From Candidatus Electrothrix sp. GW3-4 (GTDB taxonomy: Bacteria > Desulfobacterota > Desulfobulbia > Desulfobulbales > Desulfobulbaceae), in the NCBI RefSeq assembly GCF_037902255.1, contig NZ_CP147990.1, positions 930,001-962,000 on the forward strand: 32,000 bases of DNA, given 5' to 3'. Shown here piece by piece: positions 2,629-29,216 of this stretch (within the stretch, counting starts at the first letter, position 1; the number at the start of each line of letters is the position of its first letter). The position numbers were made by a program, and so were the translations under genes. Under the pieces are notes generated by a model. It had not been told where the DNA came from, searched no databases, and saw only the letters and a program-made list of their open reading frames with translations.

Positions 2629-3087
2629 TTGAAAGAGGATTTCATGCCAAAAAAATACATTGTCCAATTGACTCCAAAAGAACGCTGTCATTTACAGGAG
2701 GTTATCAAAAAGCTTTCGGGGGGCAGCCAAAAAGTCCGTCGTGCTCACATCTTATTGAAAGCTGATGCAAATGGCCCCTGTTGGAAAGACAGCAGGATAG
2801 CAGAAGCATTCAACTGTAGGACAAAAACGGTTGAGAACATCCGTCAAAATTTTGTTTTGCACGGTTTTCAACAGGCTCTTGACGGAAAAAAACGTGCAAC
2901 CCCGCCTACTCCGAAACTATTGAATGGGGAGCAGGAGGTTAAAATCATTGCCACTCGTCTTGGTTCACCTCCGCCGGGATACGCAAATTGGTCACTGCGC
3001 CTTTTAGCCCGACATGTTGTTGAATTGGAAATAGTTCCGTCGATCAGCCATGAAACTATTCGCCAAGTAATAAAAAAAACGGGATGA
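2629..3087 (+). CDS. IS630-family transposase OrfA (HTH DNA-binding part)
   Basis: 152 aa, MPKKYIVQLTPKERCHLQEVIKKLSGGSQKVRRAHILLKAD..., matching the winged-helix/HTH N-terminal half of IS630 transposases. It ends VIKKTG* with a TGA overlapping the orfB ATG. Confidence 0.85.
   Translation: MKEDFMPKKYIVQLTPKERCHLQEVIKKLSGGSQKVRRAHILLKADANGPCWKDSRIAEAFNCRTKTVENIRQNFVLHGFQQALDGKKRATPPTPKLLNGEQEVKIIATRLGSPPPGYANWSLRLLARHVVELEIVPSISHETIRQVIKKTG
3072..3079 (+). promoter_or_regulatory. Probable -1 programmed frameshift site (A8 run) joining orfA and orfB
   Basis: The site is ATAAAAAAAACGGGATGA. orfB (codon phase of 3084) is -1 relative to orfA (phase of 3085). The -1 frame is open across the run (NKKNGMNN). 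A slip gives ...RQVIKKKNGMNNRKIQYWVIPP, which resembles the contiguous KKN-x-KPW-x-WxIPP junction of fused IS630 transposases. Confidence 0.55.
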
Positions 3088-3779
3088 ACAACCGGAAAAT
3101 CCAATACTGGGTTATTCCACCAAAACACGATGCGGAATTCGTGGCCAACATGGAAGATGTGATAGAGGTTTATGAAAGACCGTATAATCCTAATCATCCT
3201 TTTCTTTGTATGGACGAACAACCAGTTCAGCTGATAAAGGAAACTCGTTTACCTATCCCGGCAACTATAAATCATGCTAAACGCGTTGATTATGAGTATG
3301 AGCGTAACGGAACAGCCAGTATTTTCATGTTCACCGAGCCTCTTTCAGGCTGGCGTGAAGCCACAGCTCGTCCTCGGCGGACTAAAACAGATTGGGCGAT
3401 CGAAGTGGCTCGCCTCCTTGAAGGTCGCTATGCAGAATGTGAAAAGATAACGTTGGGTTGCGATAATCTCAACACCCATACAAAGGGAGCTTTTTATGAG
3501 GCTTTTCCTCCTGAACGTGCTCGTGCATTAGTACGCCGGATTGAATTTTGTTACACACCGAAACATGGTAGCTGGCTCAATATAGCAGAAAACGAATTGA
3601 GCTCCATGACTCGACAATGTCTTGCCAATCGTCGTATAGGAGATATCGAGACGTTACAGAAAGAGATTGCCGCATGGTCAAGCGATGTGAATAACACTCA
3701 ACGTGGTGTTGAGTGGCAAATGAAAATTTCTGATGCCCGTTGCAAATTAAAATCCGTTTACCCTAAAATTAAGTCGTGA
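3084..3779 (+). CDS. IS630-family transposase OrfB (DDE catalytic part)
   Basis: 231 aa with LCMDEQP, LGCDNLNTH and SWLNIAENELS, the DDE_3-like triad context. Confidence 0.85.
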   Translation: MNNRKIQYWVIPPKHDAEFVANMEDVIEVYERPYNPNHPFLCMDEQPVQLIKETRLPIPATINHAKRVDYEYERNGTASIFMFTEPLSGWREATARPRRTKTDWAIEVARLLEGRYAECEKITLGCDNLNTHTKGAFYEAFPPERARALVRRIEFCYTPKHGSWLNIAENELSSMTRQCLANRRIGDIETLQKEIAAWSSDVNNTQRGVEWQMKISDARCKLKSVYPKIKS

Positions 3780-11690: not shown

Positions 11691-11984
11691 AATTCATGCC
11701 GGAATCGGTCTGATGTACATTGGAATCGACGTAATTCCAATTGGAATTGCTCTGATTCCAATTGACTTTGGTCCAATTCCAATTGACTTTGCCTTGATTC
11801 CAATTGGAATTGCCCTGATGCAAATTTACTTTGACCCGATTCAAATTGACTTTACCCTGATTGAAGTGTGAATCGTCCCGTTTGAAGTTTAAATCACTCC
11901 GATTCAAATTTAAATTGGCCCGATGTAAGTTTAAATCGTCCTGATTCAAGTGTGAATCGTTTCAATTGAACCGGCAAAAAGACC
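11691..11984. repeat. Tandem array of about 13 strictly phased 21-bp units
   Basis: Units start at 11712, 11733, 11754 ... 11943 with no indels, for example aattccaattggaattgctct, gattccaattgactttggtcc and gattcaaattgactttaccct. Units 11733 and 11796 contain the perfect 14-bp palindrome ATTCCAATTGGAAT. Degenerate units lie at both ends. Confidence 0.9.
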
Positions 11985-12390: not shown

Positions 12391-12861
12391 ATGAACCTAG
12401 AAATTAAATGGCATCAGCCAGCCTCACTTGAAGACGGCGACGATGAGAATTTAATTTACTCAGTAGACGGATTAGAAGAGTGGGAAGACTTACCCGCAAT
12501 CTATATGTTTTGTAGAAATTATGGTGGAGTATTGGTTCCATTATACATAGGAAGGTCAAAAAACGTTGGTCAGCGCATTAAACAGCACCTCAATACAACA
12601 AGGATGATGAAATCTATTCAGAAAGCACCCAAAGGAGAGAAAGTGCTAGTTATCGGTGAATTCATCCCAAAGCCAGGTCAAAGTATTGATTCATCGTTAA
12701 AGATACTAGAAAAGACATTGATCGAACATGCACTAACAGAGGGCTATGAACTTATCAATAAATCCGGCACTAAGACTCCGGTACATACCATTTCTTTGAG
12801 TGGATATAAAGCTGCTAAAGATTTCTCTGGCCCTAAAATGTATGCTAAATCAAAGCGCTAA
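12391..12861 (+). CDS. GIY-YIG family nuclease-like protein (cassette A)
   Basis: 156 aa. PAIYMFCRNYGGVLVPLYIGRSKNVGQRIKQHL supplies the GIY...YIG...R motifs. LEKTLIEH supplies the Glu and ELINKSG the Asn. RBS AAGGA lies 8 nt upstream. Confidence 0.7.
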   Translation: MNLEIKWHQPASLEDGDDENLIYSVDGLEEWEDLPAIYMFCRNYGGVLVPLYIGRSKNVGQRIKQHLNTTRMMKSIQKAPKGEKVLVIGEFIPKPGQSIDSSLKILEKTLIEHALTEGYELINKSGTKTPVHTISLSGYKAAKDFSGPKMYAKSKR

Positions 12862-12946
12862 CCATCTAATAAACCTGACCGGGTTAACAGCTGCGGCGCT
12901 GACGCGAATCAACTCCGTGGCCGGCAGGTTATCAGGGTCGTTGGAT
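12856..12946 (+). other. attC site S1
   Basis: R'' CGCTAAC overlaps the stop codon; an alternative register is ATCTAAT at 12864. R' is GTTGGAT at 12940-12946. The arms are TAAACCTG(A)CCGG and CCGGCAGGTTA with an unpaired A. It shares the core GCGGCGCTGACGCG with S2. Confidence 0.7.
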
Positions 12947-12962
12947 GGATGAATAAATAGAT

Positions 12963-13109
12963 ATGAGCCCCGAACTTCTATATTTGCTGTTGTTCCCGCA
13001 GCAGAAAACAACAATGTTACTCTTTATGCATCCCAGGTTTATGTTCGCTATGTGTTATTAGCGTTACTGGTGATCTATCCTTGCGAAAGGTGCGAAGGGA
13101 GGGGCTCAT
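12963..13109 (+). ncRNA. Candidate retron msr-msd non-coding RNA
   Basis: A 9-bp inverted repeat ATGAGCCCC (12963-12971) / GGGGCTCAT (13101-13109) brackets ~129 nt directly upstream of the RT start. A G at 12972 follows the left repeat, the position of the branching G in known retrons. Internal hairpins are TGTTGTT...AACAACA, CCAG..CGCTA-loop-TAGCG..CTGG, and CCTT-GCGA-AAGG. Confidence 0.5.
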
Positions 13110-13120
13110 TCTTTCTTATT

Positions 13121-14650
13121 ATGACTAAACTAAAGTCAAAATTAAACAAAACGGAAGAAGTTGCTACGGATCAGTTTTCTGTTTTAAATTCAGGGCAGGA
13201 TGTCGCAAACTTTCTCGAAATCCCCTATGGCCAATTACTTTACCTTTTGTATAAAAGGCCAGACGAAAAAAAATATATCTCTTTTTATATCCCCAAAAAA
13301 ACAAAAGGCCGCCGTCTGATATCAAAACCGATGAAAGGGATTGATATTTTACAACAAAAATTAAAGCCACATTTAGAATCATTCTACCGCACAAAAGCCC
13401 CTGTTCATGGATTTGTTAAAGGGAAAAGTATAGTTTCAAACGCCTCGGCACACAAAAAGCATAAATACGTTTTAAATGTTGACCTCGCCGATTTTTATGG
13501 AACCATCAATTATGGCCGAGTCCGGGGGGTATTTCTTGCTACACCATTTAAATTTGGAGAGAAAGCTGCAAGTGTTTTAGCTCAGTTAATCTGCTTTCAA
13601 AACAAATTGCCTCAGGGGGCATGTACATCTCCTGTCGTCTCAAATTTAGTTGCATCGAATTTGGATAAAAAGTTGGTCGCCTTGGCCAAAAGGTATCATT
13701 GCCAATACACGAGGTATGCAGACGATATTACAATATCTTGCAACAAAAAAACCTTCCCTCATTCTTTGGCAACATACGAAGGAAACAATCCAATTACTGG
13801 AGAGACAATTATAGGTAAGCTACTAGAAGACACCATTGACAGTGCTGGATTCAGAGTAAACCATTCAAAAGTAAGGCTGCAAATACCATTTATTCGTCAA
13901 TCAGTAACCGGACTTACTGTCAACGAATTCCCAAATGTTAACAGAGATTTCATCAGAAGTGTTCGCGCTATGTTGCATGACTGGAAGACCAATGGCCTAT
14001 TGACAGCCGAAAAAAATTATATATCAAAGCATCCACAAAAGAAAATTGACATTCCAGAAGATAAGTTAGATGGAACTTACTTCTTGAAAGTATTTTACGG
14101 TAAGCTTTCATTTATCAAAATGGTCAGGGCAGATAAAGAGAACAATGACTCAGTAGTTTCTAACTTTGCTCTAAAAGCTGGAGAGCTCGACCCTAATCCT
14201 CCTAAATACATCAAAGAAATTATGAAAAAAAGTGAATCTTTTGACATTTTTATTGGTCACGCTAGTGAAGACAAAGACGAAGTAGCAAGACCATTGTTTG
14301 AGGAATGTGAAAAACAAGGAATTATTGCTTTTATTGATGAAATACATATCTCTTGGGGAGATTCATTAACCGAAAAAATTAATCATGCACTTGGAAAGTC
14401 TAAATATTTTTTGGCCGTTCTGTCTGAAAAATCAATTAAGAAATCTTGGCCAAGAAAAGAGCTTAACAGTGCAGTAGCGAGAGAAATAAGTGGTGAGCAA
14501 AAAGTATTACCTTTAATTGTCGGGGATCACAAAAAAATATTTGCGGAGTTTCCACTCCTAGCGGACAAATTGTTTATCCAATGGGAAGGAGACGTAGAGC
14601 AAATTGTGGATGAAATAAAAAAATTAAAAGCAAAGCATCCAACAAAATAA
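13121..14650 (+). CDS. Retron-type reverse transcriptase fused to a C-terminal TIR domain (cassette B)
   Basis: 509 aa from ATG 13121; the track ORF starts at an upstream GTG at 13052. RT motifs: YISFYIPKKTKGRRLISKP, HGFVKGKSIVSNASAH (NAxxH), LNVDLADFYGTI, LPQGACTSPVVSNL, YTRYADDITIS (YADD at 13715-13726), GFRVNHSKV and SVTGLTVN (VTG). The C-terminal ~130 aa reads FDIFIGHASEDKDEVARPL...GKSKYFLAVLSEKSIKKSWPRKELN, which is TIR-like. Confidence 0.85.
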   Translation: MTKLKSKLNKTEEVATDQFSVLNSGQDVANFLEIPYGQLLYLLYKRPDEKKYISFYIPKKTKGRRLISKPMKGIDILQQKLKPHLESFYRTKAPVHGFVKGKSIVSNASAHKKHKYVLNVDLADFYGTINYGRVRGVFLATPFKFGEKAASVLAQLICFQNKLPQGACTSPVVSNLVASNLDKKLVALAKRYHCQYTRYADDITISCNKKTFPHSLATYEGNNPITGETIIGKLLEDTIDSAGFRVNHSKVRLQIPFIRQSVTGLTVNEFPNVNRDFIRSVRAMLHDWKTNGLLTAEKNYISKHPQKKIDIPEDKLDGTYFLKVFYGKLSFIKMVRADKENNDSVVSNFALKAGELDPNPPKYIKEIMKKSESFDIFIGHASEDKDEVARPLFEECEKQGIIAFIDEIHISWGDSLTEKINHALGKSKYFLAVLSEKSIKKSWPRKELNSAVAREISGEQKVLPLIVGDHKKIFAEFPLLADKLFIQWEGDVEQIVDEIKKLKAKHPTK

Positions 14651-14726
14651 TTCAGCGGATGGCGTTATCGTTGGCGGCGCTGACGCGGTAAGTTCATTGG
14701 CGCCACCGCTGATCATGACGTTAGGC
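14637..14726 (+). other. attC site S2
   Basis: R'' ATCCAAC is a perfect RYYYAAC and lies within the last codons of the RT-TIR ORF. R' is GTTAGGC at 14720-14726. The arms are CAGCGG(A)TGGCG and CGCCACCGCTG with an extrahelical A. Confidence 0.75.
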
Positions 14727-14766: not shown

Positions 14767-15240
14767 ATGGAAAGAAAACGGTCACCAACTCCCTTTACAG
14801 ATGACTTTCAAATGCTTTGTGCGTTGATAACTCACCTTGGCTCGCATGAGAAATGGCAATCAAGGACCCCAGCCGAAATTGGTGGTAGTCTTGCTATGGA
14901 TCCGAAAGAAGTTGAAAGAGTGCTCGGCGCCTTCCCTTGCTTTTTTCGAGAGTCAGCTAACAGAAAGAAAGGGCAGCGCTTATTTACGGTTCATCTCCGG
15001 TATGCCCGACGAAAAAAAGATCCTGTCACGGGTTCGCATGTTTCAGAGCCTATGACTCCAGAGGAAATTGGCATTTTAATAGATCTATTGACGCAAATGG
15101 TTTCAATTGAAACACAAGAGTCTCAATTCGTGGTCGAAATGAGAGAGAATAACCGGAGTCATGCGCGAAGTGTGTGGGTCGCTATAGCCATTGCGTTAAT
15201 TTCGTCTATAACATCGGTCGTAGTGTCAATTATAAAATAA
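14767..15240 (+). CDS. Hypothetical protein with an HTH-like N-terminal part and one C-terminal TM helix (cassette C)
   Basis: 157 aa. RTPAEIGGSLAMDPKEVERVLG is HTH-like. The C-terminal VWVAIAIALISSITSVVVSIIK is hydrophobic. Confidence 0.6.
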   Translation: MERKRSPTPFTDDFQMLCALITHLGSHEKWQSRTPAEIGGSLAMDPKEVERVLGAFPCFFRESANRKKGQRLFTVHLRYARRKKDPVTGSHVSEPMTPEEIGILIDLLTQMVSIETQESQFVVEMRENNRSHARSVWVAIAIALISSITSVVVSIIK

Positions 15241-15268: not shown

Positions 15269-15664
15269 CTAGTTATGTGCATGGTTTTGATTGGAAAGTT
15301 TATATTTGCGCCTAACAAGGCAAATCCAGCCGACGCGCCAAAGGCGCGCGCGGCTGATTTGCGGCGTTAGAGCATAATAGGGGTCAGAGCCCAATAACTG
15401 GCCAAATATTTTATCGGAACGACCAGGATTATCCATTGCATGGCCCTGCCTTCTTCCAATCCCGTAGAATGCTTCCCGCACATCATTTCCCACTGATTTT
15501 CCCTGCACTGCTGCTTCAAAAAGCAGGATGCACTTCCCCTTCGCAAAATCACATTCCCGCATAAATCTCCATCCCGTACAATCAAAACACATCGCTATAA
15601 ACCTGTCCTTGGGCATTCTCTCGCTGATGTAAAAGAGTTTACTCGCAACATCCTGAAAAGACAT
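15269..15664 (-). CDS. Hypothetical protein whose 3' end reads through attC S3
   Basis: This is a sub-ORF of 15269..15895 (-) from ATG 15664: MSFQDVASKLFYISERMPKDRFIAMCFDCTGWRFMRECDFAKGKCILLFEAAVQGK... It has no convincing RBS. The last ~35 codons are encoded by the reverse complement of attC S3 and the tail of cassette C. Confidence 0.35.
   Translation of the reverse strand: MSFQDVASKLFYISERMPKDRFIAMCFDCTGWRFMRECDFAKGKCILLFEAAVQGKSVGNDVREAFYGIGRRQGHAMDNPGRSDKIFGQLLGSDPYYALTPQISRARLWRVGWICLVRRKYKLSNQNHAHN
15310..15372 (+). other. attC site S3 (63 bp, compact canonical form)
   Basis: Layout: GCCTAAC-aaggcaaatc(c)agccg-ACGCGCC-aaa-GGCGCGC-gcggctgatttgcggc-GTTAGAG. The architecture is symmetric 7-16-7-3-7-16-7 with one extrahelical base. 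Confidence 0.85.
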
Positions 15665-22417: not shown

Positions 22418-22750
22418 GCATTGAAGTGGCAGGCGACAGCCGTACCTAAAGGTGTTTTATACTGGGCACAGCTGATGTTTATATCATCCATCGCCATGAA
22501 GAAAACGTTGCTTCAATTCTCTGTCGTCCTTTTTCTCAGGCGACAAAACAGAACGGTCATGAACCGTTCCGTATGCATCATGACAAAGGCAAACCTTAGT
22601 TCAACTAAGCGGGTGCCCTGCTTTCCGATCGGAAACGGAAAGCTGATAAAGCCACAGCCGTCGCGAGGCGGTGTCGGAAAGCCACGGATCTCCAGGGAGG
22701 AGACAGCCGGGTTGCCTGCTTTACCTATAACCTATATCGGGAGGTATGTT
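22418..22750 (+). other. Long structured 5' leader; a possible riboswitch or cis-regulatory RNA, class not identified
   Basis: About 330 nt lie between the predicted promoter and the strong RBS/ATG at 22751. Stable hairpins: GAACGGT/ACCGTTC (22551-22569), CTTAG-TTCAA-CTAAG (22595-22609), GCTTTCCG/CGGAAAGC (22620-22643), and ACA(G)CCG/CGGTGT. The motif AAAGCCAC(A/G)G occurs twice. Confidence 0.3.
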
Positions 22751-23649: not shown

Positions 23650-25399
23650 CCCACATTCCGCACGTTGACACATAAAAAAATATTTTATAACCTGCTGCCT
23701 CAAAAAGACATTTAATAAATCAACCAGGCAGCAGGTATGGAAAACAACACAACGATTTTACCACAGGAATGCTCAAGTAAACTCCTCAATCACTTGGGCC
23801 TAGTCGCGGGTATGTATGACGAACTCGGACTTGGGGAGCTGATTGACAGTCTGATTCATCAGGATAAAGAAAAGCGAGTTGTCTCAGTTGGTCAGGCAGT
23901 TAAGGCAATGGTTCTTAACGGGTTGGGCTTTGCGAATCGGGCATTGTATCTGACCCCGCATTTTTTCCAGGATAAACCGGTAGATCGACTCATCGGAGAA
24001 GGCATTGAGGCCCAGCACCTGAACGATACTGTTTTGGGCCGGGCCTTAGAAGTGATTTACGAGCATAATCCCGAAGAGTTATATTCGCAGCTTGCAGCTA
24101 GGGCAATTGGTCGTCTAGGGCTGCTGGCACGTTTTGGTCACTTGGATTCAACGAGTTTTCATACCGACGGTCGCTATCCAGCCAACGGATCAGAAGAGGA
24201 AGAAGGTGTTATTCGGATCACAAAAGGCTACAGCCGTGATCATCGTCCGGATCTGAACCAGATCGTGTTGCAGCTCATTTGCGAACGACAGGCTGGCATC
24301 CCGCTTCTGATGAAGCCGTTAAGTGGTAACAGTAGCGATAAAACAGATTTTCGGGAAACAGTGCAAGCGCATATTGATCAGATGAAAAACGATTTCAGCC
24401 TGGAATATCTGGTTGCGGATAGTGCGCTCTATACAGCGCAAACATTAAAAGAACTGAGCATGATATTGTGGATTTCCCGTGTACCGGAGACATTGAATCT
24501 GTCCCAGGAGATCATCCATGAAGTAGCTTCAAATCTGATGCAGGATCCTGAAAAAGCAGCATCTCGCAGTCTCGGGGTAGTTTATGGCGATGTCAGGCAG
24601 CGCTGGTTGGTTGTCTATTCGCCTGAAGCATATCAACGGGGACGCAAGACCGTAAACAAAAAATGCCTCAAGCTGAGCACAAATGAATCCAAGCAATTCG
24701 ATAAATTGTGCAAACAGGATTTTGCCTGCGAGGCCGATGCATTGAAAGCACTGTCCCGTTTTGAAAAAAAGCTGAAAATACTCTCAATTCATGACGCTCG
24801 TGTTGTTGCTTTACCTCGCCATAAGGGCAAAGGACGGCCAGCCAAGGGCAAGAAACCGGACTTTTATGTTTACCGCATTGAAGGCAACCCAGCCTCCCTG
24901 CTTCAGGAGAGAACCCGATTGTTGGAACGAAAAAGCTGTTTTATTCTTGCAACGAATCAGTTGGACTGCGAAGAATTGTCCGACGAGGAACTCTTGAAAG
25001 TGTACAAAGATCAGCAAAAGGTTGAACGGGGTTTTCGTTTCCTCAAAGATCCTATGTTTATGGCTTCAACGCTTTTTTTAAAATCCCGAAAACGTATCAT
25101 GGCCCTGATGATGGTTATGACGCTTTGCCTCCTGGTGTACGCCGCGTTGGAATATCGCATCAGACAAGCGCTCGAAATAAATAATGAAACATTTCCCAAC
25201 CAGAAAGGAAAACCTGCCCCTAACCCTACTGCTCGTTGGGTATTTCAGTTTTTTTCAGGAATTCACCTGCTGCTTGTCGGCGGAATGCAACAGCTGGTCC
25301 TGAATTTAAATGAACATCATTTGCGTCTGCTGAAGCTGTTGGGTGGGAGATATGAAAAATTATATTCTGGAAATGGATAGAGGGTATGCTGAATGTGGG
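23650..25399 (+). mobile_element. IS1634-family (IS4-related) insertion sequence, 1750 bp
   Basis: Terminal inverted repeats are CCCACATTCCGCA (left) and TGCTGAATGTGGG (right), matching 12/13. A 6-bp direct repeat CCATGG sits at 23644-23649 and 25400-25405. It carries a single 547-aa transposase. Confidence 0.8.
23737..25380 (+). CDS. IS1634-family transposase
   Basis: 547 aa, with HLDSTSFHTDG...GYSRDHRPDLNQ...VADSALY...YKDQQKVERGFRFLK, motifs typical of IS1634/IS4-group DDE transposases. Confidence 0.8.
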   Translation: MENNTTILPQECSSKLLNHLGLVAGMYDELGLGELIDSLIHQDKEKRVVSVGQAVKAMVLNGLGFANRALYLTPHFFQDKPVDRLIGEGIEAQHLNDTVLGRALEVIYEHNPEELYSQLAARAIGRLGLLARFGHLDSTSFHTDGRYPANGSEEEEGVIRITKGYSRDHRPDLNQIVLQLICERQAGIPLLMKPLSGNSSDKTDFRETVQAHIDQMKNDFSLEYLVADSALYTAQTLKELSMILWISRVPETLNLSQEIIHEVASNLMQDPEKAASRSLGVVYGDVRQRWLVVYSPEAYQRGRKTVNKKCLKLSTNESKQFDKLCKQDFACEADALKALSRFEKKLKILSIHDARVVALPRHKGKGRPAKGKKPDFYVYRIEGNPASLLQERTRLLERKSCFILATNQLDCEELSDEELLKVYKDQQKVERGFRFLKDPMFMASTLFLKSRKRIMALMMVMTLCLLVYAALEYRIRQALEINNETFPNQKGKPAPNPTARWVFQFFSGIHLLLVGGMQQLVLNLNEHHLRLLKLLGGRYEKLYSGNG

Positions 25400-28065: not shown

Positions 28066-28524
28066 TTGAAAGAGGATTTCATGCCAAAAAAATACATTGT
28101 CCAATTGACTCCAAAAGAACGCTGTCATTTACAGGAGGTTATCAAAAAGCTTTCGGGGGGCAGCCAGAAAGTCCGTCGTGCTCACATCTTATTGAAAGCT
28201 GATGCAAATGGCCCCTGTTGGAAAGACAGCAGGATAGCAGAAGCATTCAACTGTAGGACAAAAACGGTTGAGAACATCCGTCAAAATTTTGTTTTGCACG
28301 GTTTTCAACAGGCTCTTGACGGAAAAAAACGTGCAACCCCGCCTACTCCGAAACTATTGAATGGGGAGCAGGAGGTTAAAATCATTGCCACTCGTCTTGG
28401 TTCACCTCCGCCGGGATACGCAAATTGGTCACTGCGCCTTTTAGCCCGACATGTTGTTGAATTGGAAATAGTTCCGTCGATCAGCCATGAAACTATTCGC
28501 CAAGTAATAAAAAAAACGGGATGA
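28066..28524 (+). CDS. IS630-family transposase OrfA
   Basis: The protein is identical to 2629..3087. Confidence 0.85.
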   Translation: MKEDFMPKKYIVQLTPKERCHLQEVIKKLSGGSQKVRRAHILLKADANGPCWKDSRIAEAFNCRTKTVENIRQNFVLHGFQQALDGKKRATPPTPKLLNGEQEVKIIATRLGSPPPGYANWSLRLLARHVVELEIVPSISHETIRQVIKKTG

Positions 28525-29216
28525 ACAACCGGAAAATCCAATACTGGGTTATTCCACCAAAACACGATGCGGAATTCGTGGCCAACATGGAAGATGTGAT
28601 AGAGGTTTATGAAAGACCGTATAATCCTAATCATCCTTTTCTTTGTATGGACGAACAACCAGTTCAGCTGATAAAGGAAACTCGTTTACCTATCCCGGCA
28701 ACTAAAAATCATGCTAAACGCGTTGATTATGAGTATGAGCGTAACGGAACAGCCAGTATTTTCATGTTCACCGAGCCTCTTTCAGGCTGGCGTGAAGCCA
28801 CAGCTCGTCCTCGGCGGACTAAAACAGATTGGGCGATCGAAGTGGCTCGCCTCCTTGAAGGTCGCTATGCAGAATGTGAAAAGATAACGTTGGTTTGCGA
28901 TAATCTCAACACCCATACAAAGGGAGCTTTTTATGAGGCTTTTCCTCCTGAACGTGCTCGTGCATTAGTACGCCGGATTGAATTTTGTTACACACCGAAA
29001 CATGGTAGCTGGCTCAATATAGCAGAAAACGAATTGAGCTCCATGACTCGACAATGTCTTGCCAATCGTCGTATAGGAGATATCGAGACGTTACAGAAAG
29101 AGATTGCCGCATGGTCAAGCGATGTGAATAACACTCAACGTGGTGTTGAGTGGCAAATGAAAATTTCTGATGCCCGGTGCAAATTAAAATCCGTTTACCC
29201 TAAAATTAAGTCGTGA
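28521..29216 (+). CDS. IS630-family transposase OrfB
   Basis: It differs from 3084..3779 at two residues: I62K, and G125V next to the second catalytic Asp. Confidence 0.85.
   Translation: MNNRKIQYWVIPPKHDAEFVANMEDVIEVYERPYNPNHPFLCMDEQPVQLIKETRLPIPATKNHAKRVDYEYERNGTASIFMFTEPLSGWREATARPRRTKTDWAIEVARLLEGRYAECEKITLVCDNLNTHTKGAFYEAFPPERARALVRRIEFCYTPKHGSWLNIAENELSSMTRQCLANRRIGDIETLQKEIAAWSSDVNNTQRGVEWQMKISDARCKLKSVYPKIKS

Follow-up and report, generated by a model that had tools for sequence, protein, structure and literature searches.

The question raised by this locus of Candidatus Electrothrix sp. GW3-4 is whether the 147 nt at positions 12963-13109, which lie directly 5' of a gene for a reverse transcriptase (RT) fused to a TIR domain, are the structured RNA gene of a retron and, if so, between which bases its RT-DNA would be copied and what would prime it. 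All positions refer to the window, i.e., the whole 32,000-nt stretch of DNA that was analyzed. Type XII retrons are characterized by a clade 8 RT fused C-terminally to a TIR_2 domain, and their structured RNA was listed as not determined by Mestre et al. 2020 (PMC7736814). RT-DNA of 76 nt each was sequenced by Khan et al. 2024 (PMC10849725) from two type XII retrons, Mestre-1156 (host Salmonella Muenster, RT-DNA yield 0.02x that of Eco1) and Mestre-1195 (host P. aeruginosa, 0.29x Eco1), and the supplement also covers the type XI retron Mestre-1143 as well as Eco2. Based on the comparison of homologous loci described below, 12963-13109 is very probably the msr-msd ncRNA of a type XII (RT-TIR) retron carried in a putative integron-type cassette, and its architecture agrees with that of ncRNAs of type XII, type XI, and I-C that have been studied by experiment.

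The RT-TIR gene is located at 13121-14650 on the + strand and codes for a protein of 509 aa (type XII retron RT fused to a TIR effector) that is 100% identical to a Candidatus Electrothrix sp. GW3-4 protein listed by NCBI as 'TIR domain-containing anti-phage reverse transcriptase'. It was matched by the PADLOC model RT-TIR_XII (E 8e-172, residues 11-503), and all of its best PADLOC matches were retron RT models. Pfam domains were found at residues 57-253 (RVT_1) and 376-490 (TIR_2, E 1.9e-18; TIR was matched as well), thus both tools point to the C-terminal TIR_2 on a retron-clade RT by which type XII is recognized. The motifs NAxxH (NASAH in the window), VTG, and YADD are invariant in an alignment of 30 sequences.

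The DNA of eight loci with RTs 64-89% identical to that of the window was used as the set of close relatives, and a covariance model (R1) was constructed from the window and these eight loci only. Further RT-TIR loci were obtained with pattern scans (YTRYADD and FI[GSC]HASED), which yielded about 8 usable loci from genome contigs and about 5 from metagenome contigs, both scans being swamped by unspecific matches as the patterns are generic. The scan of viral contigs provided two loci (L182 and L183), while one frameshifted RT-TIR was found by tblastn against plasmids. In distant RT-TIR loci, which lie on contigs of alphaproteobacterial, Nitrospirales, Nitrosomonas, Vibrio, Pseudoalteromonas, and viral origin, R1 matches directly 5' of the RT, and it also matches just 5' of the RT in four further ones (L178, L179, L180, and L181). 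The consensus of the family reads, in its first half, extended a2, 4-nt linker, 8-bp hairpin with the loop YGWUCCY, and A-rich linker ending in AAUG, and in its second half U..CUUUAY, variable region, GYAAGGWRC, and extended a1. In one Hyphomonadaceae locus (L008) two R1 matches are arranged in tandem 5' of a single RT-TIR (2589-2719 and 2787-2920, 26 and 40 bits), which may represent a duplicated ncRNA. Rfam, including the msr and RT-1 to RT-19 motifs, gave no match between 12700 and 13300, either at the gathering thresholds or in a permissive scan (E values up to 10), except for a chance one on the minus strand within 13115-13193.

At the two ends of the element, a perfect inverted repeat is read in the sequence, ATGAGCCCC at 12963-12971 and GGGGCTCAT at 13101-13109, with 129 nt in between and the right arm ending 11 nt 5' of the RT-TIR start codon (ATG at 13121). 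These figures of the original prediction, which had been made from the sequence without database searches, proved exact on re-reading. The whole 147-nt element has a folding energy of -46 kcal/mol (z -2.7). Perfect 9-bp inverted repeats with a spacing of 100-160 nt are found 13 times in the window vs. a mean of 7.6 (maximum 16) in shuffled sequences, thus the repeat by itself does not exceed the chance level and was rejected as stand-alone evidence, and the case rests on its position and context, its conservation, and its covariation.

The closing helix formed by these arms exceeds 9 bp. Its 5' strand, a2 (12963-12978, + strand), is composed of the core ATGAGCCCC, the internal-loop bases GAA (12972-12974), and CTTC (12975-12978), and its 3' strand, a1 (13094-13109, + strand), of GAAG (13094-13097), the loop bases GGA (13098-13100), and the core GGGGCTCAT, so that CTTC pairs with GAAG past the internal loop and C13093 faces the first base of the following linker (U12979). 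The 3x3 purine loop interrupts the helix in the subgroup to which the window belongs (GAA/GGA in the window, AAA/GGC in six relatives), and distant relatives have an uninterrupted a2/a1 helix of 14-18 bp. In the alignment fitted to R1, 94.8% of the cells are paired (80% in shuffles and 43-54% with slid partners), 28 of the 36 pairs change on both sides, and so do all nine pairs of the a2/a1 core, counts that come from model-fitted alignments and hence lean towards R1. For this reason the repeat was tested again without alignment or model: the best terminal repeat was determined for every one of 19 relatives separately, a procedure by which the 12963/13101 arm pair of the window was also recovered independently. 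All 20 tabulated RT-TIR loci have a terminal repeat at the same place; it occurs in 15 sequence versions and measures 7-18 bp across the 19 relatives. The check named by the original prediction, i.e., whether the a1/a2-type repeats are conserved and covary in homologous RT-TIR loci, thus came out in its favor, and the covarying repeats strongly support its proposal of a retron msr-msd RNA bounded by a1 and a2 directly 5' of the RT-TIR gene.

Among the eight close relatives, the conservation upstream of the gene starts exactly at a2 and stops at a1, and it is unevenly distributed between these points. Identity to the window amounts to 85-97% for the 5' msr-like part, 78-100% for the 3' part of the element, 66-85% for the RT gene at the nucleotide level, 52-71% for the central msd part, and 42-62% for the unrelated upstream flank. 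Conserved ends around a fast-diverging center are the usual pattern of retron ncRNAs. The center of the predicted template (13030-13078, compared with relatives L161-L173 and set against the msr part) diverges at nearly the rate of the unrelated flank, possibly a sign that the msDNA is under diversifying pressure.

The msr part begins with a single-stranded linker, TATA (12979-12982, + strand), which occupies the 4 nt between a2 and the msr hairpin SL1. It is 4 nt long in 19 of 20 loci, in the versions UAUA, CAUA, UAUG, UACG, UAAG, AAAA, and AAUU, and from the analogy with Eco2 and type XI one would expect to find the priming nucleotide at or beside it. SL1 itself (12983-13005, + strand) has an 8-bp stem, TTTGCTGT/GCAGCAGA, and a 7-nt loop, TGTTCCC. 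Its stem covaries, as seen in UUUGCUGU/GCAGCAGA, UCCGCUGU/GCGGCGGA, UUUGCCGU/GCGGCAGA, and UUUGCGGU/GCCGCAGA, the loop consensus YGWUCCY is kept across the family, and by analogy with Eco2 this hairpin is the probable RT recognition element. An A-rich linker, AAACAACAAT (13006-13015, + strand), closes the msr part and precedes G13016; the ..AAUG motif at its end is kept family-wide. A different msr hairpin, TGTTGTT/AACAACA, had been proposed. Although it is present in the sequence, it competes with the conserved and covarying TTTGCTGT/GCAGCAGA and its 3' arm varies in relatives (AACGAAA, AACAGAA, AACAAAA), hence it was rejected. The SL1 part of R1 alone (model positions 30-50) also gave weak matches 5' of other clade 8 RTs (loci L010, L012, L014, L015, L016, and L022, at about 2714-2863, mostly cyanobacterial), where RT matches to the query stop short of the TIR part; the SL1 hairpin motif may be common to clade 8.

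For the msd part, a template of about 77 nt is predicted at 13016-13092 (+ strand), with RT-DNA ends carried over from relatives. In four of four mapped retrons the RT-DNA 5' end lies 2-3 nt past an AAGG/AAAG core, the mapped starts being at the end of AAAGUG in Mestre-1156, AAGGUA in Mestre-1195, AAGGCG in Mestre-1143, and AAGGA in Ec67, and the RT-DNAs of Mestre-1156 and Mestre-1195 both terminate at the G in the corresponding AUG. The viral-contig locus L182 provides the bridge to the former, as its RT-TIR is 45% identical to that of the window and the Mestre-1156 ncRNA shares 97% identity with its bases 1116-1256. R1 aligned to this locus in register (1109-1269), as the top match of the search (16.3 bits, E 6e-4), placing GCGAAAGGTG of the window on UGCAUAGAGUG of L182 and AATGTTAC on UAUGUUAG. 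The limits of the template follow from this in-register transfer, made by homology from RT-DNA-mapped relatives that are only 45-50% identical in the RT, and the cDNA is predicted to be started at G13092 and extended as far as G13016 (the G of ATG), which would be the last templated base.

Within the template, CTTTATGC (13022-13029) pairs with GCGAAAGG (13083-13090); this pairing closes the central region and is conserved. The inner stems are CCAGG/CTGG and CGCTA/TAGCG, the former with modest compensatory support (e.g., CCGG/CCGG in L161 and L162), and in close relatives there is some support for the basal pairs CUUU/AAGG as well as for the CCAGG/CUGG stem. Of the three hairpins originally proposed, only the msd-like CCAG/CTGG one is therefore retained, with this modest comparative support; the GNRA-capped CCTT-GCGA-AAGG is lost in L172 and L166 and falls away together with the TGTTGTT/AACAACA pairing. 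A long stable msd stem-loop is a hallmark of retrons. In the subgroup of the window the msd fold is no stabler than shuffled sequences (z -0.9 to +0.3), thus this hallmark is weak here, and distant (alphaproteobacterial) relatives have perfect msd hairpins of 13-16 bp (z -2.5 to -8).

The closest characterized counterparts are Mestre-1156 and Mestre-1195. They share with the window an RT with a C-terminal TIR_2, an ncRNA placed directly 5' of it and closed by a1/a2, a single msr hairpin followed by ..AUG, a template that ends in AA(A/G)GU(G/A) a few nt 5' of a1, and the absence of a G right after a2 (both have U), and the cDNA of about 77 nt predicted here compares with 76 nt measured in each. 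They differ in the RT (~45-50% identical to that of the window), in the hairpin loop (UGUUCCC in the window), and in the a2/a1 sequences, while the window has in addition the 3x3 purine internal loop in its helix, a cable bacterium (Desulfobulbaceae) as host, and an attC-bounded cassette as context. Outside type XII, the RT of Retron-Eco2 (Ec67, type I-C1, RT-Toprim) belongs to the same clade 8. In Eco2, rG15 directly follows a2 and is succeeded by 4 single-stranded nt and the stem-loop G20-U42 (PMC12405507, PMC12916289), which has an 8-bp stem and a 7-nt loop according to cryo-EM (PMC12405507). The order a2, ~4 unpaired nt, a hairpin of 8 bp whose loop has 7 nt (UGAAUCG vs. UGUUCCC in the window), and template is thus common to both, and so are the fusion of the effector domain to the RT, which makes each a single-gene system, and the sequence GUGCGAAGG before a1. 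The effector, however, is Toprim in Eco2 and TIR in the window, and rG15 after a2 faces a G, whereas the equivalent pair in the window is U12979 and C13093. The Ec67 ncRNA sequence was found at 100% identity, adjoining an Ec67-family RT, in 14 genomes of E. coli. R1 did not detect the Ec67 ncRNA, therefore this comparison rests on reading the sequences. Finally, Mestre-1143 (type XI, Nitrospira, RT-protease) has a near-identical msr hairpin and loop (UCUGUUGU-UGAUCCU-GCGACAGG) and an RT-DNA that starts at AAGGCG beside a1, but it differs in its protease effector, in the G right after a2 that faces a G, and in lacking the ..AUG termination motif.

The retron is bounded on both sides by attC-like sites. 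The upstream one (12864-12946, + strand), with the R' core GTTGGAT at 12940-12946, would mark the 5' cassette boundary, and the downstream one (14637-14726, + strand), with R'' ATCCAAC at 14637-14643 and R' GTTAGGC at 14720-14726, the 3' boundary. When folded (as the bottom strand in the case of the upstream site), both form an L''/L' stem from which one base is extrahelical, and they share the exact 14-mer GCGGCGCTGACGCG at 12893 and 14674. The downstream R'' box overlaps the last RT codons (His-Pro-Thr). In close relatives, ATCCAAC or ATACAAC is likewise found in the last RT codons, with an attC-like stem particular to each locus and GTTRRRY further downstream, and in nearly all of them GTTRRRY also occurs ~20 nt 5' of a2; their cassettes are located in different neighborhoods, some near tyrosine-recombinase genes. 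Conservation begins at 12963, past the attC core GTTGGAT, and the cassette boundary that had been drawn just outside the RNA holds. No integrase was found within the 32-kb window. No sigma-70-like promoter was found 5' of the RNA by a scan that is uninformative for this phylum, and such an absence would be expected if the cassette is read from upstream. The unit resembles integron-borne defence cassettes (bioRxiv 2024.07.02.601719) in being compact, attC-bounded, and without a detected promoter of its own, and differs from them in containing an ncRNA gene plus an ORF and in the overlap of R'' with the RT codons; a limited search of the integron-defence literature found no mention of a retron as an integron cassette.

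A third attC-like site of textbook form, likewise showing L stem and extrahelical base, is present at 15306-15376 (GTTAGAG core). Together, the three sites bound a GIY-YIG ORF (12391-12861), the retron, and a 157-aa unknown ORF (14767-15240), a group that lies between adk and amtB-glnK and resembles an attC cluster without integrase. Between adk and the cassettes, at 11734-11960, a 21-nt unit (71-74% matches; ATTCCAATTGAAATTGCCCTG and one variant) is repeated ~11 times in tandem, and the repeats are spanned by a 164-aa minus-strand ORF with no Pfam match. Elsewhere in the window we observed a c-di-GMP-I riboswitch aptamer (22641-22719, + strand; Rfam RF01051, 53.1 bits vs. a gathering score of 35) and transposase ORFs, namely two DDE_3 of 231 aa each (3084-3779 and 28521-29216) and one DUF4277/DDE_Tnp_1 (23737-25380), that point to several insertion sequences.

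The most serious alternative concerns the geometry of the RNA and not its nature. The original prediction had drawn a retron ncRNA closed by the 9-bp helix only, with G12972, the base right after the left arm, as the branching guanosine, which would have the cDNA start from ~G13099 and include a copy of CGAAGGG. G12972 is unpaired, being part of the 3x3 internal loop, its equivalent is G in roughly half of the tabulated loci, and in Ec67 rG15 does directly follow a2; yet the position is A in six of the eight close relatives, whose msr part is otherwise little changed, and in distant relatives it is taken by an ordinary G-C or A-U pair within a continuous helix. G12972 is not conserved, then, and is probably not the priming nucleotide. 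As for the start of the cDNA, a second AAGG copy, GTGCGAAGGGA at 13090-13100, contains 9 nt (GTGCGAAGG, 13090-13098) identical to the sequence that precedes a1 in Ec67, where the RT-DNA starts within AAGGA, and because of this identity the earlier geometry survives as a minority alternative. The start motif of the family, however, as defined by the AAGG of the four mapped relatives, aligns to 13087-13092 and not to 13094-13100, the mapped 5' ends of relatives imply a template start ~8 nt 5' of the 9-nt right arm, beside the extended helix, and the RT-DNA of Mestre-1195 begins 6 nt before the core a1, past the helix extension. Taken together, the evidence makes the 9-bp geometry unlikely.

Explanations that dispense with a retron RNA are weaker still. 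A structured 5' leader that controls only the translation or stability of the RT-TIR mRNA, without reverse transcription, would fit the location of the element 11 nt 5' of the start codon and an msd region that is not unusually stable, and a purine-rich GGAGG (13098-13102) is indeed buried in the closing helix. This motif, however, is 18 nt from the ATG and therefore too far for a ribosome-binding site, a variable center between conserved ends is the pattern of a retron and not of a leader, and the RT is of a retron clade, with RT-DNA being made from an RNA of matching layout in two relatives of type XII, hence we regard such a leader as very improbable. Practically negligible is the chance that the element is a fortuitous repeat, a part of the attC site, or the beginning of a longer RT. 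Such repeats number 13 in the window vs. ~8 by chance and an attC-like site lies immediately 5', but the arms covary and the conservation, which sets in after GTTGGAT, stays with the RT gene when the attC surroundings differ. A 532-aa ORF from GTG 13052 does extend the RT frame upstream, and the CDS that NCBI annotates at Ec67 is over-long in a similar way and runs across the ncRNA; the extension nevertheless shows stops or frameshifts in six of nine relatives and no shared peptide, by which an N-terminal coding extension was ruled out. Since the upstream frame is broken or shifted and its peptide not conserved, 12963-13109 is not coding, as the original prediction had supposed when it saw no protein in the element. 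With regard to such gene calls, the RefSeq CDS of the Ec67 RT (L177, 2490-4430) starts inside the known ncRNA, to which the ORF from GTG 13052 is comparable, and P0003 is likewise over-extended by gene callers.

In the retron ncRNA with the extended closing helix, several bases may be considered as the one from which priming would occur. In no type XII locus tabulated is there a G at the inner end of the full helix, the base being U, A, or C, and the base opposite the first post-helix base is C, A, or U (U12979 vs. C13093 in the window), whereas Ec67 and Mestre-1143 have G facing G at the branching position. Priming in the window might start from U12979, from A12982, the fourth linker base, where alphaproteobacterial relatives have G, or from G12986, which is invariant. 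We tentatively raise the possibility, itself rather doubtful, that type XII is a class without the canonical branching G, in which a non-G 2'-OH might serve, a displaced base (A12982 or G12986) might take over, or the DNA might be unbranched.

Put together, these elements suggest a sequence of events in which the RNA and the RT-TIR gene would be transcribed together, after which the ends of the ncRNA would be paired by the 9-bp core, the 3x3 purine loop, and CUUC/GAAG, as the covariation indicates. The RT domain would dock on the hairpin with the 8-bp stem and 7-nt loop (12983-13005), in the way seen in the Eco2 structures of the same design, a 2'-OH where the helix ends on its inner side would act as primer, and copying from ~G13092 to ~G13016 would produce ~77 nt of ssDNA, as extrapolated from the four RT-DNA-mapped relatives. 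In line with general retron and TIR biology, the complex of msDNA and RT-TIR should hold the TIR NADase inactive until it is disturbed by a phage, upon which NAD+ would be depleted and the infection aborted.

The window and its relatives provide a consensus for the ncRNA of type XII, of which two members had previously been tested, in one survey, and this consensus could become a covariance model for the annotation of RT-TIR retrons, which are now single-gene calls in PADLOC. The template region of this retron diverges far faster than its other parts. Two aspects appear worth following, i.e., the apparent lack of a canonical branching G throughout the class, by which type XII loci raise the question of whether retron priming always needs guanosine, and the probable mobility of the whole retron, in which a complete retron, including its RNA gene, would move as an integron cassette of ~1.8 kb.
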